From the NCBI GenBank assembly GCA_012520575.1, contig JAAYOB010000002.1, positions 5,264-69,263 on the forward strand: a stretch of DNA of 64,000 bases, read 5' to 3'. Under the pieces are notes generated by a model. It was given only the letters and a program-made list of their open reading frames with translations, was not told where the DNA came from and ran no database searches. Source of the stretch: Candidatus Stramentimicrobium fermentans. Its GTDB lineage: Bacteria; Atribacterota; Phoenicimicrobiia; Phoenicimicrobiales; Stramentimicrobiaceae. Positions within the stretch are counted from its first letter, which is position 1; the number at the start of each line of letters is the position of its first letter. A program made the translations under genes and the position numbers. Of this stretch, positions 42,816 to 64,000 are shown piece after piece.

Positions 42816-43229
42816 TATATAGTTCTTTTATATTAATTAATGAGCAAGATCTCATTAGTGTCGCTCAGACTGTGTTATGATAACATCTGTTTATCCATGA
42901 TCGGGAGTTAAGTCAAAAAAATAAATGATAATAGGGATTAAATAATTACAGACTAACCTCCGCCCATTAATAATGTATTCTTGATTAACACCGGTAAATT
43001 ATAAGGGCTAGATTGAAACAGGTGCCAAAATAAAGTAGATTTTTACTATAAATTAAGTAAAATAAGGATATCTCGTGCGTGCGTATTTTAAACTATTTCT
43101 TTTCTAACCGGCAAGGCAGGGGTTACCTGAAATCATTATAATCTGGTAAGAGAAAAAAGTACCTACAAAAATTTGGTACATACACATACTTATATATTCT
43201 ATAAATATATTTTGGAAAGGAGAGGAATT

Positions 43230-44120
43230 ATGTCTAAACCGAAGATTGGTTTTATTGGAATTGGCATCATGGGTTTTCCTATGGCTTGCAATCTGCTCAA
43301 GGCAGATTATCCCCTTATTGCTTATAATACCAGTGAACCATCCTTAAACAAGGTAGTTAAAGAGGGTGCTGAAAGAGGAAAGTCCTGTGCCCAGGTGGCA
43401 AATAGCTGTGATATTATCATTACCATGCTGCCCAATTCTCCTGATGTTCAGAGAGCTGTACTGGGTGAGGGGGGAATTTTAGAGGGAGCCAGTAAGGGCC
43501 AAATCTATATAGATATGAGCTCCATTGCCCCTTTAGTTTCCCGATCCGTCGCCCGGGAATTGGCTAAGAAGAGCATAGATATGCTGGATGCCCCGGTTAG
43601 CGGTGGACAGGAAAAAGCCCAATCAGGAACTTTGGCTATCATGGTGGGAGGGAAAGAAGAGATTTTCAATTATTGTAAACCCGTGTTAGAGGTCTTAGGG
43701 AAACCGGTTTTAGTAGGAGATATAGGTGCCGGGCAGACGGCGAAATTAGTTAATCAGGCCATCGTAGCTGTTAATATTGCCATAGTTGCCGAAGCCTTTC
43801 TGTTGGGCAAAAAAGCGGGAGTTGACCCGGAAAAAATCTTTAATGCCATCAAGGGCGGGTTAGCCGGTAGTCAATGCCTTACCGACAAACTACCCCGCAT
43901 GTTTAACGGAAATTTTGACCCCGGTTTCCGCTTGAGACTACATGCCAAAGACCTGAATAATGTTTTACAGACCAGTCAGGAGCTGCATAATGCCATGCCC
44001 TTAACTGCCCAGGTTATGGAGATGGTGCAGTCCTTGCTTGCTGAAGGTTACGACGAGTTAGACCATGCCGGACTGGCATTATTCTATGAGAATATGAATA
44101 AAATTTCCCTAAAAAAATAA
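43230..44120 (+). CDS. NAD(P)-dependent beta-hydroxyacid dehydrogenase (tartronate semialdehyde / 3-hydroxyisobutyrate dehydrogenase family)
   Basis: N-terminal GFIGIGIMGFPMA Rossmann motif. 6PGDH-like C-terminal helical domain. ATG 43230 with a GGAGAGG RBS. Confidence 0.75.
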   Translation: MSKPKIGFIGIGIMGFPMACNLLKADYPLIAYNTSEPSLNKVVKEGAERGKSCAQVANSCDIIITMLPNSPDVQRAVLGEGGILEGASKGQIYIDMSSIAPLVSRSVARELAKKSIDMLDAPVSGGQEKAQSGTLAIMVGGKEEIFNYCKPVLEVLGKPVLVGDIGAGQTAKLVNQAIVAVNIAIVAEAFLLGKKAGVDPEKIFNAIKGGLAGSQCLTDKLPRMFNGNFDPGFRLRLHAKDLNNVLQTSQELHNAMPLTAQVMEMVQSLLAEGYDELDHAGLALFYENMNKISLKK

Positions 44121-44145
44121 TTTAGGGAAATAGAAGGAGTTAGAC

Positions 44146-44832
44146 ATGAAGGTAGTTCTGGAAGAAAAACGAAAAGAAAATGAAGGCGTATATAGTCTTG
44201 TTTTTCAGACTGAAGAACCGGTCTCCTGGCAAGCCGGCCAGTATATGGTTTTAAATATTCCTCATGCTAATCCTGATGATAGAGGAGAAACTCGCCATTT
44301 TACCATCTCATCAGCACCTTTTCAAAAAAAACCCATGATTACCACCCATTATCTAGCGGAAGAAGGCAGCTCTTTTAAAAGGGCCCTCTTTGCCAAAAAG
44401 CAGGGAGATACGGTGGAAGTCCTGAGAATTGATGGAGAATTTACTTTAAATAAGGAATATAAAAAGTTAGCTTTTATTGCAGGCGGCATCGGAATAACTC
44501 CTTACCACGCCATGCTCTTAGAATTAGCAAAAGAAAAAGATGATAGGGATGTAATATTGATTTATAGCAACAAAGATAAAAATCATATTGCTTTTAAAGA
44601 CACCTTAGAACGCTTAGAAAAAGAGTATAACAGCTTAAAATTAGTAAATATTTTTTCACCCCGGAGAGCCGATACTAACTTAATCAAAGAAGTAGTTCCG
44701 GACATGGTTGAGCGGGCTTTCTATCTCTCCGGTCCCATAAGATTGGTTAAAGCGGTAGAGGAAGTATTACAGCAGCTCAATATCAGCAGAGACCATATAA
44801 GGAAAGATTATTTTCCACGTGTTGATGAGTAA
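44146..44832 (+). CDS. FAD/NAD(P)-binding ferredoxin-reductase-like oxidoreductase
   Basis: RHFTISS (FAD) and GGIGITP (NAD) motifs. 228 aa. Confidence 0.6.
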   Translation: MKVVLEEKRKENEGVYSLVFQTEEPVSWQAGQYMVLNIPHANPDDRGETRHFTISSAPFQKKPMITTHYLAEEGSSFKRALFAKKQGDTVEVLRIDGEFTLNKEYKKLAFIAGGIGITPYHAMLLELAKEKDDRDVILIYSNKDKNHIAFKDTLERLEKEYNSLKLVNIFSPRRADTNLIKEVVPDMVERAFYLSGPIRLVKAVEEVLQQLNISRDHIRKDYFPRVDE

Positions 44833-44931
44833 TTTTTAAACAGTTATAGAATAAATTTTTAAAATTAAAACATTTGTCCATATATAGCATGCGGGCGTAA
44901 TGATTATTATGTTGATAAGGAAAGTAAGCAG

Positions 44932-45903
44932 TTGGCTATAGAATATTCTGAAAAAGAGAGAGAAGGCATAATTGTTATCGGTGGTGCCAATATAGATGTA
45001 AAGGGTAAACCAAAAAATTTCCTGCAATGGATGACCTCCAACCCAGGCAGTATTCAAGTCAGCCATGGCGGAGTGGGAAGAAACATTGCCCATTATTTAG
45101 GACTGCTTAATATCCCTGTTACCTTTTTAAGTGCTGTTGGTGATGATGAAGCGGGCAGAGAGATATTGGAGAAGCTGAGACATGCGCAGGTACAGACCGG
45201 TGAGATTATTCAGTCTAAAAAGGACCCGACCGGAAAATATATAGCTGTTCTCAATGAAAAAGGAGATATGGAGGTCGGGATAAGTGATACGGAAATTATG
45301 AAAAGGGTTACCCCTCGCTATCTTATTGCCAAAGCAGGGATTATCAGGAAAAACCGCATGGTGATTATCGATGCCAATCTCACTACCCGTGCCCTAAACC
45401 ATATTGCCTCTTTCTGCAGTAGTGAAAATATTCCCATACTTGTTGATCCGGTATCTGTAGAAAAAAGCAGAAAACTATTAGGAATCCTGCCTAAAATTGA
45501 TTTTTTAACTCCCAATATGGGAGAACTTAGTTCTCTTTCCGGTACTATAATTAAAGAGATAGGTGATAGCAAAAGAGCAATAGAGCGACTTATGAAAAAA
45601 GGAGTTAATCATATTATCTTAACCGGAGGCACACAGGGGGCTTACCTCTATTCTAAGGAAGTCCCGGAGGGAAAGTTTATCAGAACCAGGAGAAGAAAAA
45701 TGGTAGATAGTACCGGAGCGGGGGATGCCCTGTTGGCCGGTTTTGCTTATGGCTTGTATCATAATTATGAACTTAGTCAAGCGGTTCAGGCGGGTCTTAT
45801 TATGTCGGCTTTAACGGTTACTTCTTCCCAGACGGTATACTCGAAATTAAATGAGATGATGCTAAAGAAAGAGTTTTCCAGAACATTTAGCAGGAGCTTA
45901 TAA
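44932..45903 (+). CDS. psuK: PfkB-family carbohydrate kinase, likely pseudouridine kinase
   Basis: IVIGGANIDV N-terminus, GAGDA anion hole near the C-terminus. Followed 2 nt later by psuG. TTG start, uncertain. Confidence 0.6.
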   Translation: MAIEYSEKEREGIIVIGGANIDVKGKPKNFLQWMTSNPGSIQVSHGGVGRNIAHYLGLLNIPVTFLSAVGDDEAGREILEKLRHAQVQTGEIIQSKKDPTGKYIAVLNEKGDMEVGISDTEIMKRVTPRYLIAKAGIIRKNRMVIIDANLTTRALNHIASFCSSENIPILVDPVSVEKSRKLLGILPKIDFLTPNMGELSSLSGTIIKEIGDSKRAIERLMKKGVNHIILTGGTQGAYLYSKEVPEGKFIRTRRRKMVDSTGAGDALLAGFAYGLYHNYELSQAVQAGLIMSALTVTSSQTVYSKLNEMMLKKEFSRTFSRSL

Positions 45904-45904
45904 T

Positions 45905-46849
45905 ATGGATTACTTTGAAATTTCAAAAGAAATTAAAGAAGCAATTGGCAAGGGCAGAGAAGGTAAGCCCGTAGTGGCACTGGAATCCAATCTTATTACT
46001 CATGGCCTTCCTTTTCCGGAAAATATTAATACTGCTTTTCAGATGGAAAAGAACATTCGCGATGAGGGGGCAATCCCCGCTACTATAGCCATTTTAAATG
46101 GTAAGATAAAAGTTGGCTTGAGTCATGACGAAATTGAAAAACTGGCACAATTCCCAAATACCATTAAAGCCAGTAAGAGAGATTTATCCGCACTGTTAAC
46201 CAAAGAAATGAATGGCGGCACCACGGTTGCCTTAACCATGTGGATTGCCCATCGCTGTCAGATAGTGTTCTTTGCCACAGGAGGTATTGGCGGAGTACAT
46301 AGCGACTTTGGGGGAGAAGATAATATGGATATCTCGGCTGATTTGACCGAACTTTCCCGAACCCCGGTTGCGGTTCTCTGTTCCGGTCCCAAGGCCATTT
46401 TGGATATCCCTCGCACCATGGAATATTTAGAAACCATGGGTGTTCCGGTATTGGGCTATAAGACCAAAGAACTGCCGGATTTTTACAGTCAATCCAGCCA
46501 TGTAAAGGTAGATTTTCCGGTGAAAGATGCGCAGGAAGCAGCGCAAATTGTCTGGACCCATCTGCACTTAAAGATGGGCACCGGTTTGGTAATCGCTAAT
46601 CCGATACCGACAGAATTTGCTCTCAGCAAAAAGAAGGTGGACCATTGGATAGAACAAGCCCAACAGTCCGCCCAAAAGGAGAATATAAAGGGCAAACAAC
46701 TTACCCCGTATCTCTTAAATAAGATTAAGGAATTTAGTGAGGGAAGAAGTTTAAAAGCAAATATAGAACTGTTAAAACATAATGCTACCGTAACAGCCCA
46801 AATTGCACTGGCTTATCAGGAGATTCTTCTTTCCGGCCCCCATAAATGA
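45905..46849 (+). CDS. psuG: Pseudouridine-5'-phosphate glycosidase
   Basis: IndA/PsuG pattern ALESNLITHGLPFPEN, GGIGGVH. Confidence 0.8.
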   Translation: MDYFEISKEIKEAIGKGREGKPVVALESNLITHGLPFPENINTAFQMEKNIRDEGAIPATIAILNGKIKVGLSHDEIEKLAQFPNTIKASKRDLSALLTKEMNGGTTVALTMWIAHRCQIVFFATGGIGGVHSDFGGEDNMDISADLTELSRTPVAVLCSGPKAILDIPRTMEYLETMGVPVLGYKTKELPDFYSQSSHVKVDFPVKDAQEAAQIVWTHLHLKMGTGLVIANPIPTEFALSKKKVDHWIEQAQQSAQKENIKGKQLTPYLLNKIKEFSEGRSLKANIELLKHNATVTAQIALAYQEILLSGPHK

Positions 46850-46914
46850 TTATATTTTATACCAAAGCTGCCCTATTATCGGAAAGCACTCTCAGTTGGC
46901 CGGAAGAAAAGGAA

Positions 46915-47136
46915 CTAAGTTCTTTTCAGTAAGCTGTTTTTAATCTGTTTTAACGCTCTATGCCTTCTATAATTAATGGTTTGTTGGGATTCATTTAACA
47001 ATTCCCCAATCTCGGCATCACGATAACCCCACCAATAATAGAGCAATATAATTTCGCGGTCCTGCCGGCTAAGTTCATCCAAACACCCTTTTAAAGTATT
47101 GCTTTTAAATTTACATTCTATACCATAGTAATCCAT
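46915..47136 (-). CDS. Sigma-70 region 4 (HTH) protein, downstream half of the split sigma factor
   Basis: LSRQDREIILLYYWWGYRDAEIGELLNESQQTINYRRHRALKQIK, a region-4 HTH. Confidence 0.5.
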   Translation of the reverse strand: MDYYGIECKFKSNTLKGCLDELSRQDREIILLYYWWGYRDAEIGELLNESQQTINYRRHRALKQIKNSLLKRT

Positions 47137-47475
47137 TTATTTCTCCCGCCCCTTTTCATACATTTTTCTAAAATATGTCCATAATCCCCATTTGAGTCTT
47201 TTCTTTATATAGCCGGCAAAGGTAACAGGGGGCATAGGCGTATATTGGTAGACTCCGGTAATGAAGTACAAAACAGACTGTTGATAAATATCTTCGTATT
47301 CTGATCCCATTTGATAATAAAAACAGGCCTTCCTCTTAAAAAGTGGACTGAATTGTTCTATTAGTTGCAGCATGGCTTCTTTATCCCCTGTCTTAGCTTT
47401 CTGAATTAATTGGTCAGTCATATCTTTATTTTGATTAAAATTGCTGGGCTCTCTTCTGCCCTCTGAATCAGCCAT
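47137..47475 (-). CDS. Sigma-70 (ECF-like) region 2 protein, upstream half of a split sigma factor
   Basis: 112 aa with region-2-like EDIYQQSVLYFITGVYQY. Ends in TAA, immediately followed in the same frame by the ATG of the region-4 ORF. Confidence 0.45.
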   Translation of the reverse strand: MADSEGRREPSNFNQNKDMTDQLIQKAKTGDKEAMLQLIEQFSPLFKRKACFYYQMGSEYEDIYQQSVLYFITGVYQYTPMPPVTFAGYIKKRLKWGLWTYFRKMYEKGREK

Positions 47476-47901
47476 CCTTAATCAGCTCCTTCTGTTAATA
47501 TATTATTTCTTTCATTCTTCTTGTCTAATAGTAAGCTGTAGAGGGTGTTGTTGTAGTCTGAAACCGGTAAATATAGAGGATATTTTTGATACATTTTTAC
47601 CTGAATATTACTTTAATCTGAAATAACAGTCTAATAGCGATCTGAAAATACTCAGGACTATAGCAGAAAAGAGTGAAAAGCATCTTAACCAGGGAATTAG
47701 AAAGCTAAACGGGATAAGAAGAGGGTGCAAAATCTAATTTTATTAAATATTGCAAGATAATATCTCCTGGCATAGACCAAGAAAAAACACACTTTTTCTA
47801 CTTGTTTTTATCTTAAAAATATGAGGAAAAAATGAGAATATTTAGAAGAATAGCATTACTTGAGATATTAATGACCTTTCCCGTTACCTCATTATTAAGC
47901 A

Positions 47902-49074
47902 CTATTGTTTATTTGTAGAATGGTCGGAATCGTAGGCACGGTTGAAGAGCAGCAAATAATCTTCTTTGGTCATCGGTCTGGGGTTACTGCTATTGGAACC
48001 GTTTTGAAAGGACATTTCTGCCAACATTTCAAAATCACCCGGATTTACCCCTAAAGACCTAATCCCCGGTAAACCAATCTCCTTAACCAATTTTTTAATA
48101 AGTTCAATGCCTCTTGCCGCTGCTCTCCGGTCATTATGCTCCGTAATTCCCATGGCTCTTGCTACCCTGGCATATTTATATTCGGCATAAGGTAAATTAT
48201 ATTCCATAACGTAGGGCAGTAATATGGCATTACACATACCATGAGGTGCGTCGTATACCCCACCCATTGATTCTGCCATACAGTGCACCGAGCCCACATC
48301 AGCATGGCTGAAGGATAGCCCCGCTAAAAGACTGCCCATCATCATCTTATCTCGTGCCTCAAGGTTTTCTCCGTTTTTTACCGCTTCAACTACATTTGAG
48401 GCAATGAATTCTACAGCGTACAATCCCGCGGCCTCCGCTATCGGTTCAGTACAGTTGGCGGTGTAGCCCTCTATGGCATGGGTGAGGGCATCGATTCCGG
48501 TAGCGGCAGTAATCAGAGGAGGAACGGTTACGGTCAGCTCCGGGTCTACAAGAGCGGTTTTCGCCGCTATAGAAGCACTTTTGATGGTAAATTTAAATTT
48601 TTCTTGAGTATCGGTAATAACAGAGGAGAAAGTTATCTCACTTCCGGTACCGGCGGTAGTCGGTATAGTGATAAGGGGCAGACAATCACCCTGCACTTTA
48701 TTTATACCGCGGTAATCTTTTGCCTTACCTTCCTGAATTGCCAAAACGGCAACGGCTTTGGCCGCATCTATTGGACTTCCGCCGCCGAAAGCGATCAGCG
48801 TATCGACTGCCTCTTCTTTTGCTCTCTGGGTACAGGCTTCTACTTCATAGTCTTTTGGGTTTGCTCCAATCTCATCATAGACAGTAAATTCAATTTTTTC
48901 AGCACCTAATAGTCCGGATAATTTGTTAACCATTCCGGTTTTAACCAGACCTTTGTCGGTTATGACCATCACTTTTTTGGCCTTTAATATTTGCAGCTCT
49001 TCTCCCAATACTGTTAACATTCCTGCACCATACCTTATCTTGGTAGGTAAAACAAATTCAAACGGACTGATCAT
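47902..49074 (-). CDS. Iron-containing (group III) alcohol dehydrogenase
   Basis: GGGSPIDAAK NAD motif. His-rich metal site HAIEGY...HCMAESMGGVYDAPHG. Confidence 0.85.
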   Translation of the reverse strand: MISPFEFVLPTKIRYGAGMLTVLGEELQILKAKKVMVITDKGLVKTGMVNKLSGLLGAEKIEFTVYDEIGANPKDYEVEACTQRAKEEAVDTLIAFGGGSPIDAAKAVAVLAIQEGKAKDYRGINKVQGDCLPLITIPTTAGTGSEITFSSVITDTQEKFKFTIKSASIAAKTALVDPELTVTVPPLITAATGIDALTHAIEGYTANCTEPIAEAAGLYAVEFIASNVVEAVKNGENLEARDKMMMGSLLAGLSFSHADVGSVHCMAESMGGVYDAPHGMCNAILLPYVMEYNLPYAEYKYARVARAMGITEHNDRRAAARGIELIKKLVKEIGLPGIRSLGVNPGDFEMLAEMSFQNGSNSSNPRPMTKEDYLLLFNRAYDSDHSTNKQ

Positions 49075-49446
49075 GATTTCCTAACTCCCTCCCCATAACA
49101 AATTGTTAAAGCACGGATAATTATTACCTACTTGTTTTTCATTACAGGTAAACCGTTTTTCAGTTTCCATTTCCCGGTTTTCAGAAAGAAAGACAAAAAA
49201 TAATACACTTCTATAATATACAAGATTTATCTTTGTATAAAAAGAATTTTTCAAATGTTTTTCTTTAATTATAATCTTTCTCTAAAATACTAATACCTAT
49301 CTCGCCAATTTTCCATTATAATGAAATATCATACTTTACATTTTTTACAGATTTGCTTTCAACAAAAACTGATAAGATCTTGAACCGGAATATTTATTTC
49401 AGAAAGTTGAGCTACAGATTAACTTTAATTGGGAGGAGAAAGTAAC

Positions 49447-50172
49447 ATGAATCTGATTATCGTAAAAGACTATCAAGAACTCAGTCAAGCAGCTGCTGAT
49501 TTGGTTGCCCGGGAAATAATTGCCAAGCCCGATACAGTTCTCTGTTTACCGACAGGTGAGACTCCTATCGGTATGTATCGGGAATTGATTCAGAAATATC
49601 AAAGGGGAGAAATAGATTTTTCTGAAGCAGTTGCTTTTAGTTTAGATGAATATTGTAGCTTATCTCCTGAGCATCCTCAAAGCTACTATTATTACATGCA
49701 GCATACCTTCTTCCGGCATATTAATATCAAAGCAGAGAATATCTATCTCTTAAATGGAATTACGCAGGATATTGTAGCTGAATGTGAAAACTATGACAAA
49801 CAAATTCTGGAAAATGGGGGTATAGATCTGCAGATACTGGGCATAGGCAATAACGGTCATCTCGGTTTTAATGAACCGGCTATCAGTTTGAATAGCAAGA
49901 CCCATCTGGTAAACCTGTCAGATGATACTATTCATGCCAATTCCCGATTTTTTAAAAACATCGAGGAAGTTCCTACCAAAGCTCTAACCGTAGGTATGGG
50001 GGCCATTATGAAAGCTACGAAGATTATGCTTTTAGCGAGCGGAGAGAAAAAAACGGCTGCTATAAATAAGACTATCAACGGCTTAATCAGTACCCGGTCA
50101 CCTTCCACTTTCTTGCAGCTGCACCCCGATGTAACCATAATTATTGACAAAGATGCCGCCTCCAAGCTCTGA
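49447..50172 (+). CDS. nagB: Glucosamine-6-phosphate deaminase
   Basis: LPTGETPIGMY and LGIGNNGHLGFNEP motifs. Confidence 0.85.
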   Translation: MNLIIVKDYQELSQAAADLVAREIIAKPDTVLCLPTGETPIGMYRELIQKYQRGEIDFSEAVAFSLDEYCSLSPEHPQSYYYYMQHTFFRHINIKAENIYLLNGITQDIVAECENYDKQILENGGIDLQILGIGNNGHLGFNEPAISLNSKTHLVNLSDDTIHANSRFFKNIEEVPTKALTVGMGAIMKATKIMLLASGEKKTAAINKTINGLISTRSPSTFLQLHPDVTIIIDKDAASKL

Positions 50173-50515
50173 TTTACGCTACAGTATAATTGTAAGAACA
50201 CAAGGTTTTGGTTTTTTAGTTCCCCGTTTTCAGTAAAATGCGAAATAGTTTGCGTCATAAGTAATGTATAGTGTATAATAAAAATATCTAAAGTTCTCTC
50301 TTTATTCCTTGCGGGCATTCCTCTCTTTGTCTTTGTATTTCTTTGCTGCTTTAGCAGCAGACGGTAATCTCATCCTCTATAGCTTGCAATCTTTCTTTTT
50401 TATTTTCCCTGACAACTATTTTGTTCCATTTGAACAAAACCTCATTTTAATATAAAATAAAAATTAAAACTAATCTATAACTAAGCAATAACTAACGAGA
50501 GGAGCACATTACATA

Positions 50516-52339
50516 ATGAAAGGTAATTTTGGAAAATATCTTTATGTTGACTTAAGTGAGAATGAAGTAAAAGATTATCCTATTCCTGAGGAATGGTACC
50601 GTAAGTATTTGGGCGGCAGGGGTATCGCCGCTCGCATATTATTACAAGAACTCGGCCCCAATACAGAACCCCTATCTGCTGACAATATCATGATCATGGC
50701 TGGTGGCCCCTTACAAGGTTTAGGTATTGCCGGTGCAGCTCGTTTTCTGGTCATGGGTAAATCCCCTAAAACCAAAACCATCAATGATTCCTTCTGCGGC
50801 GGCAGCTTTGGTGATATCTTAGGCAAATCCGGTTATGATGGCATCATCATCAAGGGTAAAGCCCAAGCACCGGTTTATCTCTTAGTGGATAATGGTACTG
50901 CCCGGATATTATCGGCAGAAGACCTTTGGGGTTTAGACCCTAAACAGGTAGAGGAGAAGCTTAATCCACTCTATAAAGGCTGCTCTATCGCCTGTATCGG
51001 AAAAGCAGGAGAAAACTTGGGCATGCAATCCTGTATTATTATAGACCGCAACCGTTCCGCTGGCCGCCCTGCCTATGGCGCCCTGATGGGTTCTAAAAAC
51101 TTAAAAGCAATAGTAATTCGTGGCAACCGGAAGAAGGAGATCGCTGACGCCGAAAGATTTAAAAAATTAAGGAAAGAATTTACCCAAAGAATAATAAAAA
51201 CAGGTACATATAATGGACGTCAGAAGTATGGAACCCCCGGAGGAGTGGAAGCCCTAAGTATAAACGGAGTACTTCCCACCAAAAACTTCACAGATGGTCG
51301 GTATGCTGATGCCGGTAAAATCAGTGGGCAGGCTCTGGTCAAGAGCAAGGTTTGGATAGGCAATGATACCTGTCCCGGGTGTCCTATCAGATGTAAAAGA
51401 GTAGTGGAAGGTGTCTATAATGGTGAACCATTTGAAAGAGCATGGGGAGGGCCCGAATATGAGACCATCGCCTCCTTCGGCTCACTTCTCCTAATCAATG
51501 ACTTAGAGGCTATAAGTCTCTTCAATAAGAAGTGCAATCAGTATGGTCTGGATACCATCTCAGTGGGAGTACAGATTGCCTATCTAATGGAGGCAACCGA
51601 GCGGGGGCTCCTCTCTGAAGAAGACCGGATTAGCTGGGGTGACGCCAAAGCAGTTTCATCTCTAATTGATAAGATTGCCCACAGGGAAGGCATAGGTGAT
51701 TGGGTAGCAGGAGGGTGTGATAAAATCTCAGAGAAAGTAGGAGACGGCTCCTTCTTAGTGCAATGTAAAGGACAAGAGATTCCCATGCATGACCCCCGAG
51801 GTAAATATTCCTTGGCAGTCTACTATGCCACCACTCCCAGGGGAGGTAACCATATGGAGGGTACCCATGACCCGACACCGGCCCATCCGGAATTGAATTT
51901 ACCCGACAATCCAGCTCAAACATGGGAAAACAGGGCTCTCATTGTTGGTGAGTATCTGCACTTGCGTTCCTTTGCCAACTCAGCCATTCTCTGTGCCTTT
52001 ACCTCCGGCTTGAATTATCCGGAAAGTGAATACCTCTTCCCTCTAATCCGCGACATAATAGAGGCGGCTACTGGTCAGAAACTCTCTGTTAAGGAAATGC
52101 TTACCATTGGTGAAAGAAATTATGGATTGCTCCGAGTCTTTGCCGAGAAAGCCGGCTATACCCGGGAAGATGATAAGCTCCATCCCAGATTCTTTGAATC
52201 CCAAACTTCAACCGGCTTTGCCATAGATGAGGAGAAACTGAACGCGACTATCGATGAATACTATAAGCTCTATAGTTATGATAAATACGGTCCTGACCGA
52301 AAGAAAGCTGAACAACTTGGTATATCTGCATTGCTTTAA
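50516..52339 (+). CDS. Aldehyde:ferredoxin oxidoreductase (tungstopterin AOR family)
   Basis: 607 aa. AOR_N (GGRGIAARIL) and the AOR catalytic domain with Cys ligands (CPGCPIRC). Confidence 0.85.
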   Translation: MKGNFGKYLYVDLSENEVKDYPIPEEWYRKYLGGRGIAARILLQELGPNTEPLSADNIMIMAGGPLQGLGIAGAARFLVMGKSPKTKTINDSFCGGSFGDILGKSGYDGIIIKGKAQAPVYLLVDNGTARILSAEDLWGLDPKQVEEKLNPLYKGCSIACIGKAGENLGMQSCIIIDRNRSAGRPAYGALMGSKNLKAIVIRGNRKKEIADAERFKKLRKEFTQRIIKTGTYNGRQKYGTPGGVEALSINGVLPTKNFTDGRYADAGKISGQALVKSKVWIGNDTCPGCPIRCKRVVEGVYNGEPFERAWGGPEYETIASFGSLLLINDLEAISLFNKKCNQYGLDTISVGVQIAYLMEATERGLLSEEDRISWGDAKAVSSLIDKIAHREGIGDWVAGGCDKISEKVGDGSFLVQCKGQEIPMHDPRGKYSLAVYYATTPRGGNHMEGTHDPTPAHPELNLPDNPAQTWENRALIVGEYLHLRSFANSAILCAFTSGLNYPESEYLFPLIRDIIEAATGQKLSVKEMLTIGERNYGLLRVFAEKAGYTREDDKLHPRFFESQTSTGFAIDEEKLNATIDEYYKLYSYDKYGPDRKKAEQLGISALL

Positions 52340-52590
52340 TCTATACTAATTTTTGTATAATACAAAGAGAACCTTTAGTCTCCAACTTAAGGATGTATTC
52401 CTACTTTTACTTCACCTTTTTAGACTTTATTGAAATGTTGTTACAACTTTATCTCCTACTACCACAATAATTTCTTCTAAATTATTTATGAATAATGTTG
52501 ACTTTTATTTTAAAATATATATACTATGTTCAATAATATAAAACAGTGTTTCATAGTACAAGACATAGAATATAGAATGTAAATATACTA

Positions 52591-53376
52591 ATGACTTCTA
52601 CAAATAACAAAAAACGGTCAAATTATTATGTTCGTTCAATTAATAGGGCAATCAATATAATTAATCTGTTAGCCAATAAAAAAGAAGAACAAGGAATAAC
52701 AGAATTAAGCTTACAATTAAACCTGCATAAAAGTACTGTCCATCGCCTTTTAGTTACTTTAGAAGATGAAGGATTTATAGTACAGAATACCATTACTCAA
52801 AAATATAGTCTCGGATTAAAATTTCTTGAATTAGGAAATATTGTTCAAGAACGGATAGAAATCAAAAGATTAGCATTTCCAGTAATGCAATCCCTTGCCC
52901 AAAAAACCCAAGAGAGCATAGACCTTAATATTTTAATAGATGATAAAAGAGTTAGTATAGAAAAGATTGATAGTCCTCATGATTTGAGAAGAATAATACA
53001 GTTAGGCAAGAGTCTGCCATTATATTGCGGGGGTTCTGGGAAAGCAATCCTGGCTTTCCAATCAGACACAGAAATCGACAGGATACTTGATAAAGAAGAT
53101 TTAATTTCTTACGGGGTAAATACTATAACAGATAAGGTTAAATTAAAAAAACACTTAGCAGAAGTACGAAAGAATGGCTATGCTATAAGTTTTGAAGAGA
53201 GAACTATTGGTTCAGCCTCTATCGCGGCTCCTATTTTTAACTTTCAGGGGAAAGTTATATATTCCTTGAGTATTTCTGGGCCCATAACTCGCTTTACCAA
53301 GCAAAAAATATACTTGTATATTTCCTTAATAAAGAATGCAGCGAGCGAAATTTCGAAGACTTTAGGCTATCGTTAA
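52591..53376 (+). CDS. IclR-family transcriptional regulator
   Basis: N-terminal HTH (LHKSTVHRLLVTLEDEGF). C-terminal IclR effector domain. Confidence 0.8.
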   Translation: MTSTNNKKRSNYYVRSINRAINIINLLANKKEEQGITELSLQLNLHKSTVHRLLVTLEDEGFIVQNTITQKYSLGLKFLELGNIVQERIEIKRLAFPVMQSLAQKTQESIDLNILIDDKRVSIEKIDSPHDLRRIIQLGKSLPLYCGGSGKAILAFQSDTEIDRILDKEDLISYGVNTITDKVKLKKHLAEVRKNGYAISFEERTIGSASIAAPIFNFQGKVIYSLSISGPITRFTKQKIYLYISLIKNAASEISKTLGYR

Positions 53377-53467
53377 ATTAACAAAAATATTTTTCTATAT
53401 TTTAGACAGGCAACTACTATTAAAAACCTATCTTGAAAAATAAAAATGTAGAAGAGGTGGTAATCGT

Positions 53468-53629
53468 ATGAAAAACAAGGCTATAGACAAAGAAGTAGGC
53501 ATAGAATTACTTGAGAGTGAATCAAAAACAGAAGACTTGATACTGTTTGACAATACCGACAAGCCTTTTTTGGTCTTGTATTTATTCATATTTATCTTTG
53601 GCATTATTTTGACTGTAATAAGTATTTAG
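53468..53629 (+). CDS. Small (53 aa) single-TM protein preceding the symporter gene
   Basis: GAGGTGG RBS. Hydrophobic C-terminal helix. Not in the ORF track. Tentative. Confidence 0.3.
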   Translation: MKNKAIDKEVGIELLESESKTEDLILFDNTDKPFLVLYLFIFIFGIILTVISI

Positions 53630-53645
53630 GTTAGATAATCACACA

Positions 53646-55115
53646 ATGACAATGCCGATACAAATCATTATTTTAATACTATATTTTATCTTAATAATAT
53701 TCCTGGGAATATTAGCTATGAAAAAGGTGAAAGGCTCTGATGACCTTTTAGTAGCTGGTAGGAATTTAGGAATGATGTATGTTTCTGTTTCTATTGCTGC
53801 CGAATACATGGGAGGATTGGGTACAGTGGGAACGGCAGAGGTAGCCTTTAGCCAGGGAATGGGAGTAATCTGGTATCATATAGCCTCAGCCTTTGGATTA
53901 ATACTGTTTGGAGTAGGGTTTGCCCACTATTACCGCAAATACAATGTCATAACAGTACCGGAGTATCTCTACTTTCTCTATGATATAAAGACCTGGAAGG
54001 CATCTTCCTTTTTAAATGTTTTTGCTTATTGGATTTTTACCGTTATTCAGATGACTGCTATGGGCTCGCTAGTTGCTAGCGTAACCGGATTTGATTTAAA
54101 ATGGAGTGCTTTCATCTGCGGAATTGGTATGACTGTCTATCTCCTAGCAGCCGGTATGTGGTCGGTTGCTTTTACCAGTGTAGCTTTTATGATTACCATA
54201 GGTACAGGCATCCCACTCGCTTTTTGGTGGGTCATGAAACATGAGATGCCCCTTCTGGCAACCTCAGGCGGTATTTCCGGTTTTGCCGGTTTGGCCAATG
54301 CACTTTCCGCCGCAGGTCTTGATGCAGCACATCTAATGAATCCTTATAGTTTAGGAGGAATGGCAATACTGGGATATTTCTTAGGCGGAGTGTTAGGGAT
54401 ACCCGCAGCACAAGCAACTATTAATTATTCATTTGGTGCCCGCAACTGGAAAATAGCGAGATTGGCACCGGTGTTAGCAGCTATTCTGATACTGCCGCTA
54501 AGTATCTGGACCGGTTCTATGGGACTTTTTGCCAGAGCAGCAGACTTGACTACCAATCCGAAGTTGGCACTCGGAGCTACCTTGATGCATATCAATCCTA
54601 TAATTGGAGGCATTGGTATTGCCGGCATATTTGCCGCACTGGTTTCTACCGTGGCTGGCATATTATTTGGCTGTGCCTCTATTATGGCAAAAGATATCTG
54701 GCAAAGATGGCTGCACCCTAATACCGATGACAAATACTTAGCCAAGTGGACCAGATTATGGATACTCATTATTGGGGTTACCTCTGCTTTCGGAGCAATG
54801 AGTCTGCCCAAAATACTACACCAAGCCTATTTTGTCTATTCCATCAGAAGTGCTCTCATGATAGTAGTAGCCTTCGGCTTATGGTGGAAGGCAGCCCATC
54901 CTAATGCTGCTTATTGGAGTATGATAGTGGCATTGGTAGGGGGAACCATGTATCAATTCAATATTCCTATTAACTTTCAGTCATATTTTCATTTACATAT
55001 TGCGATCTGGTGTGGACTCCTAAGCTTTATTACTTTCATAATTGTCAGTTTTTTTTCTAAATGGACTTCCCAAACAGCCGGAGAGTTGCCGCCAGCCTAT
55101 GTAAAACAGAGATAA
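53646..55115 (+). CDS. Sodium:solute symporter family (SSF) transporter
   Basis: About 13 TM helices. SSF N-terminal pattern GRNLGMMYVSVSIAAEYMGGLGTVG. Confidence 0.8.
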   Translation: MTMPIQIIILILYFILIIFLGILAMKKVKGSDDLLVAGRNLGMMYVSVSIAAEYMGGLGTVGTAEVAFSQGMGVIWYHIASAFGLILFGVGFAHYYRKYNVITVPEYLYFLYDIKTWKASSFLNVFAYWIFTVIQMTAMGSLVASVTGFDLKWSAFICGIGMTVYLLAAGMWSVAFTSVAFMITIGTGIPLAFWWVMKHEMPLLATSGGISGFAGLANALSAAGLDAAHLMNPYSLGGMAILGYFLGGVLGIPAAQATINYSFGARNWKIARLAPVLAAILILPLSIWTGSMGLFARAADLTTNPKLALGATLMHINPIIGGIGIAGIFAALVSTVAGILFGCASIMAKDIWQRWLHPNTDDKYLAKWTRLWILIIGVTSAFGAMSLPKILHQAYFVYSIRSALMIVVAFGLWWKAAHPNAAYWSMIVALVGGTMYQFNIPINFQSYFHLHIAIWCGLLSFITFIIVSFFSKWTSQTAGELPPAYVKQR

Positions 55116-55707: not shown

Positions 55708-56040
55708 ATGAAAAAAAGTTGTAAAAAGCAATACATTTTAGTAACCCATATTATCAAAAAAGAAAACGAACAATATGTAGCTACTTGCCCAGAATTTGAT
55801 GTATCTTCTTTTGGCGATACTGTGGAAGAAGCTAATAATAGTTTGAGAGAGGCAATTTTGTTATATTTAGAAGGTATAGAAAGCTTAAATATTCTAGATC
55901 AAATTTTCAAAGAAAAAGCCATTGTAACTTATGAAAGAAAACCTAAATCTGTAACCAGTGATTATAGATTTGCAGATGATCTGGATGGCCAGCCTTTTGT
56001 TACTAAAAAGTCTCTAAATGTTGCTTTATGCAATTCTTAA
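55708..56040 (+). CDS. hicB: HicB-family antitoxin
   Basis: N-terminal YVATCPEFDVSSFGDTVEEANNSLREAILLYLEG, matching the HicB/UPF0150 fold. Strong RBS AAGGAGGAAAGG. Confidence 0.6.
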   Translation: MKKSCKKQYILVTHIIKKENEQYVATCPEFDVSSFGDTVEEANNSLREAILLYLEGIESLNILDQIFKEKAIVTYERKPKSVTSDYRFADDLDGQPFVTKKSLNVALCNS

Positions 56041-56050
56041 TAAAATGTAA

Positions 56051-56274
56051 AATTTCCCCATAATAACTGGTGAAGATTTAATAAGTAGACTATGCAAAGC
56101 TGGTTACATAGTATTAAGAACGAAAAGTTCTCACACTTTCTTGACTTTGCAGGCCACCCTGAAGTGTCTACTGTAGTAAAAAATACCTCTAAAGATATTC
56201 CCCAAGGAACATTGGCTTCTATTAGAAAACAATTAAGATTAACTCGAGAAAAATTTATCGAGATTATTTCTTAA
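56051..56274 (+). pseudogene. hicA: hicA toxin remnant (frameshift plus premature stop)
   Basis: HicA N-terminus (GEDLISRLCKAGYIVLRTKSSHTF) is in one frame and the C-terminus (HPEVSTVVKNTSKDIPQGTLASIRKQLRL) in another, joined at CACAC. Only an ATG-TAA precedes the N-terminal part. Confidence 0.5.
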
Positions 56275-56498
56275 TAATGGGTATTGTTAAAAACTAAGAT
56301 GAATATAGAGTAATATACTACTAACTATATAATACATTTTTATTTGATGATTAACTTTATAATCTATGAAAATGATTTCTAAGTATACCTAAATCCGTAC
56401 ATGATGAAACATTAATATCAAAAATTGTTAATACAATAAGAATTCTTCATTCAACGAAATTATTCAAATAAAGGTCTTTATAAATTCAGGAGGGGGAA

Positions 56499-59030
56499 AT
56501 GCAGGCAATAAATAAAAATTTTTTGCAATTTCTAGAGGGAGTGGACAAAAGGTTTTCAATTCCGGTCTTTCAAAGAAATTATGATTGGCAAAGAGAGCAT
56601 TGCGAACAATTGTTTAATGATTTACTGGACATAATAAAATTTAATTTCCGCAGCCACTTTTTAGGGTCACTTGTGTATGTATTTGATGAATCAAAACCAG
56701 GTTTTGAATTGTTAATTATTGATGGGCAACAGAGAATCGCAACCTTATCTATTTTACTTTTAGCGCTGCATAATCTATTAGAAAACAATGAGATTCAATC
56801 TCGCTCTGAATCATTAAGCGAACAGATTAGAGATACTTACTTGATTGACAAATATGCTCAAGAAGGTAAGAAAATAAAGTTCGAACCGGTCAAAGAGGAT
56901 AATGAAGCCTATCTGAAATTGTTTAAAAATAATAGCGAAGAGTTCATTAAAAATTCTAATATTACTATCAATTATCAATATTTTGTTGATAGGATTAAAA
57001 GAAGCAATTTGTTAGCTGATGATTTATTTGAGGCAATTAAGAAACTAACTATAGTAGATATTAGGTTAGATAGTAATCATGATGATCCACAGTTAATATT
57101 CGAAAGTCTGAATTCTACTGGTTTAAATTTAACCCAGTCCGATTTAGTTAGGAATTTTATCCTAATGGGGAAGAATAAGAGCGAACAGAAAAGATTGCAT
57201 GAAGATTATTGGCTCATTATAGAAAAAAATACAGGAGATCAGGTCGATTCCTTCGTAAGGGATTACCTTACTCTCAAAGAAAGAATTATTCCTAACAAAA
57301 ATAAAATCTACATTAGCTTTAAGAAGCATGTAAAAAAAGAATATTCCAATGATGATATCGAAAGTTTACTAAAAGAGTTAAAAAGATATTCCCAATACTA
57401 CCAAAGAATTATTTTCCCATTAGATGATAAATCCAAGATAAATGTTGTCTTAAAAAGAATTAATAAATTAGATATTACTGTATCTTATCCCTTTTTATTG
57501 GAAGTTTTTAGCTATCACGATGACAAGGTTATAGATGATGAAACACTTGTTAATATTTTAGATACCATAGTATCTTTTGCTTTTAGAAGACTAATATGTA
57601 ATGTACCAACCAATGCCCTAAATAAGATGTTTGCTACTATCGGAAGAGATATCCAAAAATATCCTGACTTCAAAGTAAATTATTTTGAAATATTCAAGCA
57701 TATTTTGATTAATAAGAAATACAGTCAAAGATTTCCAACAGATGAAGAGTTTTCAGAAATACTGGTCACTCGGGATATCTATAATCTGCAAAGTAAAAAT
57801 AAATTACATCTATTAGAGAGGTTAGAGAATTATGACAATAAGGAAAGAGTCAAAGTAGAAGAACTGCTGAATGAAGGGGATTTAAATATTGAACACATTA
57901 TGCCCCAAACACTGACTCCGAGTTGGAAGGCTGCCTTGGGAGACAACTGGGATGAAATATATAATAAATATTTGAACACTCTTGGCAATTTGACACTTAC
58001 CGGATACAACACCAAGATGAGCAATAAGCCTTTTTTAGAGAAAAGAGATATGGAAAAAGGGTATGAAGATAGCAGCCTTGCTCTCAATAAATATCTCCGC
58101 ACCCTAGAAAATTGGAATGAGGAGACAATTATTGAAAGGGCAAATCAACTAACAAGCACTGCTTTAAAAATCTGGACATACCCCAAAACGGAATATAAGG
58201 GACAGATAGAAGAATCAAATAAATTTATCTTATCCGATGACCACGATTTTACCGGAGACAAAATAGCGTCCTTTACCCTTTTAGGACAAGACTTTTCAGT
58301 AAACAGTTGGAGGGATTTTTATATCAAACTAGCGCAAAATTTAATCGAAATTAACCCTAATATTTTTGCTGATTTTTTAAAGGATAAGAGGTTTATTGAA
58401 GAGAGAAAAATAATTTCTGCTCAAGCCGAATCTTTGAGCAATCCTTTTGAAATTGCAGAAGGTATTTTTTTAGAAACACATTTGAGTGCCCAGTCTATTG
58501 TTAATAATGCTTTGTTGATTTTAAGTAAATATGAAATTGATGAAGATGGAGTAGCAGTAATCTTGAGTAATAAGAATAGCCAAGAACTAGCAGATTTCCA
58601 AAAGAAAAGAATAAAATTTTGGGGAGGATTATTAGAAATAAATAAAGATAGAATAAAATATTTCAAGAAAAATACAAGTTTTATACATTATGACCTCTAT
58701 AGCGGAACCGGGATAACAAGGTGTTCTTACTTTTATCGTATTAAACAAAAAAGCGGTACGGTGGGATTGTCTATTGATACGTATGACAAAGAGAAAAATG
58801 AGCATATTTACAACAAACTATTAGAAAAGAAAAACGAAATAGAAAACGCCTTTGGAGAAAAACTTGAATGGTTTGACGGTGAAAAGACTCAGTTTAAGTC
58901 TATCTATAAAGAATATAAATATACTGGCCTTAAAAATGAAGACAAATGGCCGGCTTTACAGCAAGACATGGCTGATGGCATGGCAAGATTTACTGAAATA
59001 TTAGATGAATACCTTGCAGAATTTAAATAA
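56499..59030 (+). CDS. GmrSD-like type IV restriction protein (DUF262 ParB-like NTPase + DUF1524 His-Me nuclease) with long C-terminal extension
   Basis: DUF262 hallmarks FSIPVFQRNYDW and DGQQR. DUF1524 hallmarks NIEHIMPQ and LGNLTLTGYNTKMSNK. 843 aa, about 280 aa beyond the nuclease domain. Confidence 0.7.
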   Translation: MQAINKNFLQFLEGVDKRFSIPVFQRNYDWQREHCEQLFNDLLDIIKFNFRSHFLGSLVYVFDESKPGFELLIIDGQQRIATLSILLLALHNLLENNEIQSRSESLSEQIRDTYLIDKYAQEGKKIKFEPVKEDNEAYLKLFKNNSEEFIKNSNITINYQYFVDRIKRSNLLADDLFEAIKKLTIVDIRLDSNHDDPQLIFESLNSTGLNLTQSDLVRNFILMGKNKSEQKRLHEDYWLIIEKNTGDQVDSFVRDYLTLKERIIPNKNKIYISFKKHVKKEYSNDDIESLLKELKRYSQYYQRIIFPLDDKSKINVVLKRINKLDITVSYPFLLEVFSYHDDKVIDDETLVNILDTIVSFAFRRLICNVPTNALNKMFATIGRDIQKYPDFKVNYFEIFKHILINKKYSQRFPTDEEFSEILVTRDIYNLQSKNKLHLLERLENYDNKERVKVEELLNEGDLNIEHIMPQTLTPSWKAALGDNWDEIYNKYLNTLGNLTLTGYNTKMSNKPFLEKRDMEKGYEDSSLALNKYLRTLENWNEETIIERANQLTSTALKIWTYPKTEYKGQIEESNKFILSDDHDFTGDKIASFTLLGQDFSVNSWRDFYIKLAQNLIEINPNIFADFLKDKRFIEERKIISAQAESLSNPFEIAEGIFLETHLSAQSIVNNALLILSKYEIDEDGVAVILSNKNSQELADFQKKRIKFWGGLLEINKDRIKYFKKNTSFIHYDLYSGTGITRCSYFYRIKQKSGTVGLSIDTYDKEKNEHIYNKLLEKKNEIENAFGEKLEWFDGEKTQFKSIYKEYKYTGLKNEDKWPALQQDMADGMARFTEILDEYLAEFK

Positions 59031-59049
59031 ACTATAAAAAATTTTATAA

Positions 59050-59235
59050 ATGGAGGAAACTAAAATGCCAAACAGAATATGCGACTCATGTGGAAAACTA
59101 AAAGATGTGCAGGGTGGTAAAACCTGTGAAAACGGTCACTTCATCTGCAAGGATTGCGTCTATGCCGGTATAGGGTTTATGGGATTTGGAAGTGTCTTGA
59201 CCACCTGTCCTATTTGCAAAAAACCATTGAGATAA
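59050..59235 (+). CDS. Small Zn-ribbon protein (two CxxC pairs)
   Basis: CDSCG...CENGHFICKDC...CPIC. GGAGG RBS. 16 nt downstream of the GmrSD-like gene. Confidence 0.4.
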   Translation: MEETKMPNRICDSCGKLKDVQGGKTCENGHFICKDCVYAGIGFMGFGSVLTTCPICKKPLR

Positions 59236-59584
59236 TTCCAAAATAAACTGCAGTATTATGTGTGAGAGTCAGATTTTGAATTATCAGTTTTGCGATATTT
59301 CAAATCCTGATTCCATAAGAACTTTGTGCAAACCTTGTATATAATAGAAGATTTTTTGTTCTGCAATATAGAGAAGTTTGCCCTGTCCCTATCATGAGAA
59401 TTATTTTGTTCAGATTTTTATCTGAGGCATTAATACTTTTTCATATATATTGTTGATGAAGCGATTCGATTATTTGTCAGGCAGTCAACAAAAATGTATA
59501 CTATCTATTGCAGATACAGCAGAAGTTACTTTTTCTTTATTGTACCAGCAAATAATATTAATAATATTTAAAAAAGGAATTTAT

Positions 59585-60277
59585 ATGAAAAATAACATTG
59601 GTAATGATTTAAAAATTCCACCGATTGGCAGAAAACCCCTGAATGTAAAGGTTTATGAAACCCTTAAAAAATCAATTATTAATGGTACATGTCAACCAAA
59701 TACAAAATTAAGTGAATCTGAATTAGCTAAACAAATGAATGTTAGTCCTACTCCTGTGAGAGAGGCATTTCGCCGATTAGCTGCGGAAGGATTAGTGAAA
59801 ATTATACCATGGAAGGGTGCTGTTGTTAGTAGTTATTCATTAGCAGACATTAAAGATACATATCAATGCAGAGAAGCATTGGAGGTATATATGACTCGTT
59901 TAGCGGTACCCAATATCGATAAAAAAGGTATAAGCAAGCTGCGAATGCTGCTAGAACAATCGAAAGAAGCAAAAAATGAGACAGAATTAGTTGAAATTAA
60001 TTCTAGAATTCACACTACTATTACGGATTATGCAAATAATAGCAAAATGAAAAGCCTTTTGGATTCCCTGAGAGATGTCATTATTCACGATCGTAATCTA
60101 TCTGCATATAGTTCTGATCGTCGGATTAAGATATATGAAGAACATGTAGAATTAATTAATGCAATAGAAGAGAAAAATATACCAAAAGCAGAGGAAACAA
60201 TGAGAAAGCATATCATTAATGGATACAAGTATATTGTTGAAAAAATTAAGTTTTCAAATAATTTAAATAGAAACTAA
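59585..60277 (+). CDS. GntR-family transcriptional regulator (FadR/FCD subfamily)
   Basis: wHTH LSESELAKQMNVSPTPVREAFRRLAAEG plus an FCD domain. ATG 59585 with an AAAAAAGGAA RBS. Confidence 0.8.
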   Translation: MKNNIGNDLKIPPIGRKPLNVKVYETLKKSIINGTCQPNTKLSESELAKQMNVSPTPVREAFRRLAAEGLVKIIPWKGAVVSSYSLADIKDTYQCREALEVYMTRLAVPNIDKKGISKLRMLLEQSKEAKNETELVEINSRIHTTITDYANNSKMKSLLDSLRDVIIHDRNLSAYSSDRRIKIYEEHVELINAIEEKNIPKAEETMRKHIINGYKYIVEKIKFSNNLNRN

Positions 60278-60478
60278 AAAATTTGACAAAAGATACTATA
60301 GAATATAGAATATATTTTAATTAATAAAAACTCAAGCATTTTATTTTTCGAAAAGTACTACTCTTAAATACCTAACTGGTAATTTTATTTATAGAAAAAT
60401 ATATTGAACTTGACATGAACATAAGTAAATAGTGTCCAGCATAAAAAAGTAAACTTAGGAAAAGAGGAATTTTAATTA

Positions 60479-61447: not shown

Positions 61448-61533
61448 TTATTTTCCCCCCAAATACGCAAGGTTTATGAGGAATAATTTACGTTTGGTAT
61501 CTTAAAAAATTTAAGATGTAGGAATCAATATAC

Positions 61534-62475: not shown

Positions 62476-62481
62476 TAAGCT

Positions 62482-63669: not shown

Positions 63670-63684
63670 GTTTGAGGTTTTTTA

Positions 63685-64000
63685 GTGACGAGAGACATAA
63701 TTAAAGTAAAGAATTTAAAGATATCTTTTTTTACTCATCTTGGAGAAGTGCAGGCAGTTCGAGGAATAAACTTTCATATAAAAAATGGAGAAGTTCTTGG
63801 TATCGTAGGGGAATCCGGTAGTGGGAAAAGTGTTACAGCTCTATCAATTTTAAAACTATTACAATACCCAGGTGTAATAAAAAATGGTGAGATAGTTTTC
63901 GGTGGAGAAGATTTAGTAAAAAAATCTGAAAACGAAATGAACAAAAAGATAAGGGGTAACAAAATATCTATGATATTTCAAGATCCCATGACATCTTTAA
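63685..64000 (+). CDS. Oligopeptide ABC transporter ATP-binding protein (OppD/DppD type); 3' end beyond window
   Basis: GTG start. Walker A GESGSGKS. Open to the window end. Confidence 0.8.
   Translation, partial: MTRDIIKVKNLKISFFTHLGEVQAVRGINFHIKNGEVLGIVGESGSGKSVTALSILKLLQYPGVIKNGEIVFGGEDLVKKSENEMNKKIRGNKISMIFQDPMTSL

Follow-up and report, generated by a model that had tools for sequence, protein, structure and literature searches.

A predicted two-polypeptide sigma-70-family factor of Atribacterota, encoded by abutting genes in Candidatus Stramentimicrobium fermentans

The locus and its two reading frames

We analyzed a 64,000-nucleotide stretch of contig JAAYOB010000002.1 from Candidatus Stramentimicrobium fermentans (phylum Atribacterota), here called the window, in which two adjacent open reading frames (ORFs) on the minus strand carry the two halves of what looks like a sigma factor of extracytoplasmic function (ECF) size. 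At their junction the minus strand reads ...AAG GGG CGG GAG AAA TAA ATG GAT TAC..., and the TAA stop of the upstream ORF (47139-47137) directly abuts the ATG of the downstream ORF (47136-47134) in the same frame, with 0 nucleotides (nt) between them. The ORFs encode 112 and 73 amino acids (aa), 185 aa in all. An earlier note on this DNA had described the same arrangement, a region-2 ORF whose stop is followed directly by the in-frame ATG of a region-4 ORF for a total of about 185 aa, and both the sequence and the ORF list agree with it. The features at the junction, in window coordinates, are as follows.

47137..47475 (including the TAA), minus strand: predicted gene for the sigma-2 subunit, regions 1.2/2.1 to 2.4, 112 aa, 13.5 kDa
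46915..47136, minus strand: predicted gene for the sigma-4 subunit, a short leader and regions 4.1 to 4.2 with a helix-turn-helix (HTH), 73 aa, 8.9 kDa
47134..47147, minus strand: junction and proposed translational-coupling site, with a Shine-Dalgarno (SD)-like GGGAG (47147-47143), the 6-nt AAATAA that includes the stop, and the ATG (47136-47134)

The downstream ORF, or C half, is a clear region 4, scoring 44.4 bits with Sigma70_r4_2 and 37.6 bits with Sigma70_r4 (Pfam). The upstream ORF, or N half, scored above the cutoff for Pfam HTH_16 (23.7 bits) and below it for Sigma70_r2 (17.9 bits), and it had weak NCBIfam matches to the N termini of SigH and SigF. With the generic sigma-70/ECF model TIGR02937 (cutoff, 42.9 bits), an artificial concatenation of the two halves reached 50.2 bits, the C half alone 41.7 bits, and the N half alone 12.3 bits. 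NCBI records carry the sigma2 half as a "hypothetical protein" and the sigma4 half as a sigma factor or HTH protein, and therefore sigma factor censuses of Atribacterota would be wrong. The labels met in the source databases were "hypothetical protein [Atribacterota bacterium]," [quoted passage not shown] "sigma factor-like helix-turn-helix DNA-binding protein," and, from the Joint Genome Institute (JGI), "specialized sigma subunit."

AlphaFold2 was run on each half separately with alignments of 32 to 33 sequences. The N half was modeled as four helices (predicted local distance difference test [pLDDT] score, 85.6; core, >90), and its top 50 Foldseek matches in the PDB were all sigma2 domains, at a root mean square deviation (rmsd) of about 2 Å over 75 to 90 residues. 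These matches include sigma32, sigmaB, SigE-N, sigma28, sigmaS, and the complex of sigmaE sigma2 with its -10 element; the N-half sequence profile also matched the sigma2 domains of sigmaF (1l0o) and SigE-N (8b3z) via a region 2.3-type F-x-x-Y motif. For the C half (pLDDT, 89.9), the top Foldseek matches were sigma4 domains with template modeling (TM) scores of 0.8 to 0.9, among them SigL (3hug; TM score, 0.9; rmsd, 1.3 Å) and sigmaE region 4 on -35 DNA (2h27). Judged by these models, each half is a complete domain, one a full sigma2 and the other a full sigma4.

The invariant residues of the N half are EYED..QQ and PP.TF.GY.KKR.KWGLW.Y.RK, region 2.2/2.3-type motifs that include TFAGY and KWGLW. 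In the C half they are LYY(WW)GY.D.EI...SQQ.INY.R, where SQQ.INY.R is the region 4.2 recognition helix. By alignment to characterized sigma factors, these residues would make up the core-binding, -10-melting, and -35-recognition segments. Residues 32 to 38 of the C half (window 47010-47040, minus strand), in region 4.1, are unusually aromatic: they read LYYWWGY almost invariantly and LYYLEGY in the more divergent subfamily 2 described below. It is a speculation that LYYWWGY might strengthen binding to the beta-flap without a covalent tether.

Conservation of the junction and of the separate halves

The set of close orthologues consisted of the window and four metagenome assemblies from different samples, with protein identities of 75 to 99%. 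A protein search with the fused sequence gave 7 matches, including four proteins related to the N half, with identities of 99, 85, 80, and 75% and each exactly 112 aa long. On each of the four contigs, the 112-aa gene abuts a 73-aa region-4 gene (L003 is incomplete; loci are given by our working numbers), and L001 has psuG/psuK neighbors as in the window. In the DNA alignment, the stop at the junction is TAA in three of the five assemblies and TAG in two, the ATG always comes next, and GGGnGAAATARATG is invariant in all five. The earlier note had proposed an alignment of orthologues as the way to see whether the stop is conserved; the stop is kept, and none of the orthologues has a sense codon at the junction. 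The two domains do not share one polypeptide, as a stop lies between them in the window and in all orthologues.

Both halves are under purifying selection as judged by Nei-Gojobori estimates of the ratio of nonsynonymous to synonymous substitution rates (dN/dS), which was 0.14 to 0.27 for the N half and 0.14 to 0.24 for the C half at overall dS values of 0.3 to 1.4. Over the last 8 codons of the N ORF, dN/dS relative to the window sequence was 0.9 to 1.4, so that the protein here is near neutral while the nucleotides are conserved. Such a pattern is expected if the stretch is where ribosomes bind to translate the next cistron. The RNA around the junction showed no meaningful conserved structure (-3.55 kcal/mol), and a search for known RNA elements or riboswitches in Rfam gave no match anywhere in the 64-kb window.

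A scan of one genome per species yielded five further loci, all in Atribacterota metagenome-assembled genomes (MAGs), and more loci were reached from the C-half side. At these distant loci the halves are separate genes in the order sigma2 then sigma4 and lie in different frames, with the following gaps between them.

L017: 38 nt
L010: 49 nt
L014: 80 nt
L013: 139 nt
L015 and L016: 157 nt
L006: 215 nt
L008: 265 nt
L011: 274 nt
L009: 595 nt

The frame of the N half meets 8 to 29 stops before the end of the sigma-4 gene at the seven loci counted. Wherever a contig reaches far enough to judge, which leaves out the short L004 and L007, both halves are present, and they are strictly adjacent and in this order in each of two subfamilies, whose identity has fallen to 40 to 55%. 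The halves also codiverge: their pairwise identities across 11 loci are correlated (Mantel r = 0.77, p ~0.0004). L004 (P0005) looked at first like a sigma-4 gene without a partner because of a shared repeat, GAGATTNCCGCAGTCGCTAYGCTYCTTCGCAATGACAAA, which lies in the spacer 5' of the sigma-4 gene in both L004 (250-300) and L011 (3900-3950). This candidate was dropped, as L004 is an 861-nt low-coverage contig whose upstream DNA has repeats in common with the long spacer of L011. The repeat itself resembles the small dispersed palindromic repeats of many bacteria.

The smallest of these gaps bears on how the window arrangement may have arisen. L017 belongs to a sister lineage that has the N-terminal extension of the window clade. 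Its N ORF ends ...GGG CAG AAT TGA (G-Q-N-stop), and a 38-nt spacer with a strong GAGGAGG SD sequence leads to the sigma-4 ATG. In the window clade the codon equivalent to this TGA is TGG, and the ORF runs on into GGGGGAAATAG, directly followed by the ATG. The simplest reading is that a deletion of about 30 nt took out the spacer and that the N ORF now reads through the remnant of the sigma-4 SD sequence; in the window, the tail of the N ORF has changed from GQNWGK to EKGREK with GGGAG kept. The halves would then be in frame because of that single deletion, by accident and not as a recoding signal. The window clade is one point mutation away from refusion, yet only exchanges between TAA and TAG were seen. 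When the earlier note called the sigma factor split by a single in-frame TAA, its wording suggested a point mutation; the comparison of loci points instead to an old two-gene system whose spacer has collapsed to zero.

The extent of the family emerged with alignments of the diverged halves, which were needed to reveal it, the single fused query having given only the 7 matches above. A profile of the N half matched 879 proteins, the best 120 of which are all short (92 to 129 aa), and a profile of diverged C halves matched 822 proteins at an E value of ≤1e-3, the best 120 of these again all being short (66 to 120 aa). The two halves thus have families of matching size. The organism names given for the profile matches were Atribacterota, save for one MAG labeled Elusimicrobiota. 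The N-half homologue from that MAG (P0326) has 56% identity and could reflect either mis-binning or a real occurrence outside Atribacterota. When 1.84 billion cluster representatives were searched exhaustively by HMMER, the N-half profile returned only 182 matches, six of them below 1e-10 and all six 74 to 110 aa long. Next in the list came intact sigma factors of 183 to 204 aa, which scored at most 55 bits against this profile, compared with 66 to 178 bits for members of the split family. We found no intact single-chain orthologue among the 1.84 billion representatives with the N-half profile.

The intact relatives of 183 to 204 aa match only the generic TIGR02937 model and have sigma2 and sigma4 domains only. 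The concatenated halves align with them end to end. The break lies within the sigma2-sigma4 linker, and that linker is about 20 to 30 residues shorter in the split proteins than in the intact relatives. Among the weaker matches of the N-half profile were also short (60- to 130-aa) sigma2-like proteins outside the Atribacterota family, such as P0022 (94 aa). Some of these may be fragments at contig ends, and others may be further standalone sigma2 proteins of other lineages.

A probable two-polypeptide sigma factor and its alternatives

We consider it likely that the two ORFs are genuine genes which together encode a two-polypeptide sigma-70-family factor of ECF size, with translation coupled in the window clade. 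The ORFs are separate and conserved, both are under purifying selection, their products are a sigma2 and a sigma4 domain, they are colinear with intact sigma factors, and they are inherited together. In the proposed mechanism, the sigma-2 subunit (13.5 kDa) would bind the beta-prime clamp helices of RNA polymerase (RNAP) and recognize and open the -10 element, the sigma-4 subunit (8.9 kDa) would bind the beta-flap and recognize the -35 element, and both would assemble on the core enzyme as a heterodimeric sigma factor. The two-gene arrangement would be ancestral and widespread in Atribacterota, and the window clade would have had its spacer deleted to zero, with the consequence that the sigma-2 ORF runs through the old sigma-4 ribosome-binding site and stops at the TAA just before the ATG. 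The sigma-4 subunit would probably be made from the same mRNA by coupling at GGGAG-N6-ATG, through either termination-reinitiation or direct SD-dependent initiation. Reinitiation or coupling, which the earlier note had listed among its possibilities, is plausible in the window clade: the residues of the tail drift, yet the SD-like GGGnG, the stop, and the ATG do not vary. We also lean toward the broader proposal that Atribacterota have a phylum-wide, linker-less two-polypeptide sigma factor, with a chromosomal lineage by psuG/psuK and a lineage in a prophage-like module.

Several points weigh against the two-polypeptide sigma factor. Its predicted assembly on RNAP and joint promoter recognition are read from sequence homology and from genes that stay next to each other. 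Neither a target promoter nor a regulon could be inferred in the 64-kb window, where the conserved promoter-like block described below occurs once only. At L009, a terminator-like hairpin, CCACCTTCTAAGAAGGTGGTTTTT, lies in the spacer before the sigma-4 gene, and the halves there may be transcribed separately. Finally, some low-level read-through to a fused 186-aa protein may occur in the window clade.

The earlier note had first offered an inactivating nonsense mutation, by which an ordinary ECF-type sigma factor would recently have become a pseudogene. The two ORFs are indeed in frame and sum to 185 aa, and only their fused product passes TIGR02937. Nevertheless, the conserved stop and the purifying selection exclude such a mutation: the stop is kept as TAA or TAG in five assemblies, the ATG and SD sequence are conserved with it, and the low dN/dS of both halves holds up to a dS of about 1.4, with no relaxed selection on the C half downstream of the stop. 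These assemblies are not one clone, given the 75 to 99% spread of identity, hundreds of relatives have separate halves, and no intact orthologue was found among the 1.84 billion representatives. We give the pseudogene almost no credence. The same evidence disposes of a false stop made by sequencing or assembly error. This is a general possibility with metagenome-derived sequence only, and we discarded it completely because five assemblies made independently from different samples all have the junction, and two kinds of stop codon occur in it.

A programmed read-through or reassignment of the stop would yield a single-chain sigma factor of 186 aa in the window clade, which would resemble the nearest intact relatives, and all five members of the clade with abutting genes have kept the halves in frame. 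However, common descent from one spacer deletion explains the in-frame state, and read-through cannot be how the family works, since the halves of its relatives lie 38 to 595 nt apart and out of frame with multiple stops between them. The site uses both TAA and TAG, TAA is the genuine stop of most long ORFs in the window (24 of 36), the junction lacks a conserved RNA structure, and the invariant ATG and SD sequence would be needless. Insertion of pyrrolysine at TAG was ruled out by the TAA of three of the five orthologues. We therefore regard read-through, which the earlier note had also raised, as very unlikely and unneeded. A more substantial alternative, although still an improbable one, is that the proteins are real and do not form one sigma factor, the sigma-2-like protein acting, for example, as an RNAP-binding modulator or decoy and the sigma-4-like protein as an independent HTH regulator. 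Standalone regulatory sigma-like domains exist, PhyR having a degenerate one (PMC8103513); long, variable spacers would permit independent expression, and the hairpin of L009 fits with it. On the other side stand the strict adjacency and order of the halves in both subfamilies, their codivergence, the completeness of each domain together with their joint colinearity with intact sigma factors, and the invariance of the region 2.2/2.3-type motifs (EYED..QQ, TFAGY, and KWGLW) and of the recognition helix.

The two-polypeptide reading has a precedent in SigO-RsoA of Bacillus subtilis (YvrI-YvrHa), in which transcription starts only when SigO (sigma4) and RsoA (sigma2) act together (PMC10028694, PMC7826278, PMC8103513). 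SigO is 22.5 kDa and RsoA 9.0 kDa (PMC10141391), and the operon is written yvrI-yvrHa (PMC8103513). As in that system, the sigma2 and sigma4 functions, here identified by sequence and fold, are on separate, adjacently encoded polypeptides, and the N half has an N-terminal KAKxGDxxA..L motif region and Pfam HTH_16 in common with RsoA. Unlike RsoA, the N half scored 13.7 bits against a cutoff of 100 on the RsoA equivalog model NF041489, with only residues 24 to 55 aligned. The Bacillus operon, as we read its notation, has the sigma4-containing gene first, in contrast to the order sigma2 then sigma4 found here, which is colinear with an intact sigma factor. The partition also differs, at 13.5 plus 8.9 kDa (a complete sigma2 and a minimal sigma4) versus 22.5 plus 9.0 kDa, and so does the phylum, Atribacterota versus Bacillota. 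On the joint need for both subunits in promoter-specific initiation and their direct contact, which mark SigO-RsoA, the observation here that bears is the codivergence of the halves. Hence, of the earlier note's suggestion of a two-subunit sigma factor of the SigO-RsoA kind, the two-subunit part is the best supported reading, and the kinship with SigO-RsoA holds by analogy only: the split sigma factor would work like SigO-RsoA from outside that family.

Three other comparisons place the pair. Intact sigma factors of ECF size (group 4-like) are similar in that an artificial concatenation of the halves, though neither half alone, passes TIGR02937 and that it aligns with them over its full length, and they differ in that the chain here is broken in the sigma2-sigma4 linker. 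In phage T4, two small RNAP-binding proteins, gp55 and gp33, take the roles of sigma domains 2 and 4 in late transcription (PMC12867686, PMC2988020, bioRxiv 10.1101/2024.09.12.612765). The likeness lies in two small proteins in domain-2 and domain-4 roles and in one Atribacterota subfamily that sits in a phage-like module (replication initiator to holin/endolysin), whereas the C half, by its domain and structure matches, has the canonical sigma4 HTH that binds DNA, which argues against the T4 type. gp33, a beta-flap binder, is not known to bind DNA, to resemble sigma4, or to read a -35 element, and the T4 system depends on the sliding clamp. ECF sigma factors that have been split by engineering, for use as intein AND gates, are cut between sigma2 and sigma4, like the pair described here, and are religated by intein trans-splicing (PMC7090010); the Atribacterota halves have no intein and stay separate. 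In the literature searched on Atribacter sigma factors and on split sigma factors, we found no description of a two-gene sigma factor of Atribacterota.

To our knowledge, SigO-RsoA is the only characterized cellular two-subunit sigma factor. If the two-polypeptide reading is true, the Atribacterota pair would be the second and the first clean colinear bisection of an ECF-size sigma factor, in a new family of hundreds of sequence clusters with the break exactly in the sigma2-sigma4 linker. In structures of ECF holoenzymes this linker threads the RNA exit path and is thought to aid initiation and promoter escape. The covalent linker, the ECF counterpart of the sigma finger, would then be dispensable for initiation, and a natural system without a continuous linker would be a direct test of the need for a tether. 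Regulation could act on each half separately, and paralogous pairs could even swap halves; the system would be a natural AND gate and could serve synthetic biology as a compact part. The series of spacers from 595 nt down to 0 would further suggest that two genes can drift to within one mutation of fusion and yet stay separate. The 2021 ECF reclassification left "ECF factors with split domains" unexplored (PMC7826278).

Candidate expression signals, neighborhood, and the subfamily in a prophage-like module

The following candidate signals lie 5' of the sigma-2 gene.

47528..47558, minus strand: promoter-like block GACTACA-N18-TACTAT, with GACTACA invariant across subfamily-1 loci in the alignment
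47500..47527, minus strand: sigmaA-type promoter-like TAGACA-16-TAATAT, 5' of the sigma-2 ribosome-binding site, 9/12 matches in a consensus scan and partly conserved in the alignment
47490-47486, minus strand: ribosome-binding site AGGAG of the sigma-2 gene
47763..47784, minus strand: terminator-like hairpin between the Fe-alcohol dehydrogenase (Fe-ADH) gene and the sigma genes, a single consensus match

The block consists of GACTACA, a nonconserved spacer of fixed length (18 to 19 nt), and a TAnnAT hexamer. GACTACA-N17-19-TANNAT occurs once in the window, where 0.10 occurrences are expected by chance, and 10 related loci each have one copy 5' of their N-half gene. The spacers that precede the sigma-4 genes lack it, and its occurrence only 5' of the sigma-2 gene rules out a promoter or operator shared by both genes in this block. 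The block could be a promoter for an as yet unnamed sigma factor, with autoregulation one possibility, or an operator. SigmaA-like sites were no more common than in shuffled sequence, and hence the TAGACA-16-TAATAT site is weak evidence of a promoter. The hairpin at 47763..47784 suggests that the sigma pair may be its own transcription unit.

The neighborhood (43173-55115) is metabolic, with genes for a 3-hydroxyisobutyrate-dehydrogenase-like protein, an NAD-binding oxidoreductase, psuK, psuG, the Fe-ADH, a NagB-like isomerase, an aldehyde:ferredoxin oxidoreductase, an IclR regulator, and an SSF transporter. Nothing adjoining the sigma pair in this neighborhood was recognized as an anti-sigma candidate. 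psuG/psuK lie downstream and convergent with the pair, an arrangement kept in L001, L006, L008, L011, L015, and L016 (the chromosomal lineage); the upstream Fe-ADH gene is found in the window only. In the long spacers of subfamily 1, T-rich repeats come right after the sigma-2 stop (L009, 6720-6760; L006, 2455-2505; L008, 3905-3935; L015, 3844-3875), of the form (A/G)GTTTTTAGTTTT.. in L008, L009, and L015 and TTGGTAT in L006.

Subfamily 2 (L010, L013, and L014) is more divergent, with N halves of 104 to 105 aa and C halves of 66 to 72 aa, and is found in a prophage-like module. At L013 (2451-6209; Ca. Atribacteria bacterium MT.SAG.1, SORV01000038.1) and its fellows, the order in the module, as annotated with PHROGs, is a phage-type replication initiator/DnaD-like loader overlapping the start of the N half, the sigma halves, DUF1659, DUF2922, a holin, and an M15 endolysin. 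A phage origin was not borne out by IMG/VR, in which no viral contig encodes a relative. The spacers of this subfamily contain GC-rich palindromes, one or two in each, GGGGCGGAT(A/G)AATCCGCCCC and GGGGTTCGATGAATCGAACCC, which lack a U-tract (L010, 874-924; L013, 3861-4001; L014, 605-686). These palindromes may be repetitive extragenic palindrome (REP)-like elements or hairpins that stabilize or process the mRNA. In the window itself, two segments away from the sigma pair (26001-32000 and 56001-64000) have a lower GC content, 0.30 to 0.34 versus 0.38 to 0.44 elsewhere, and may be islands or mobile DNA.

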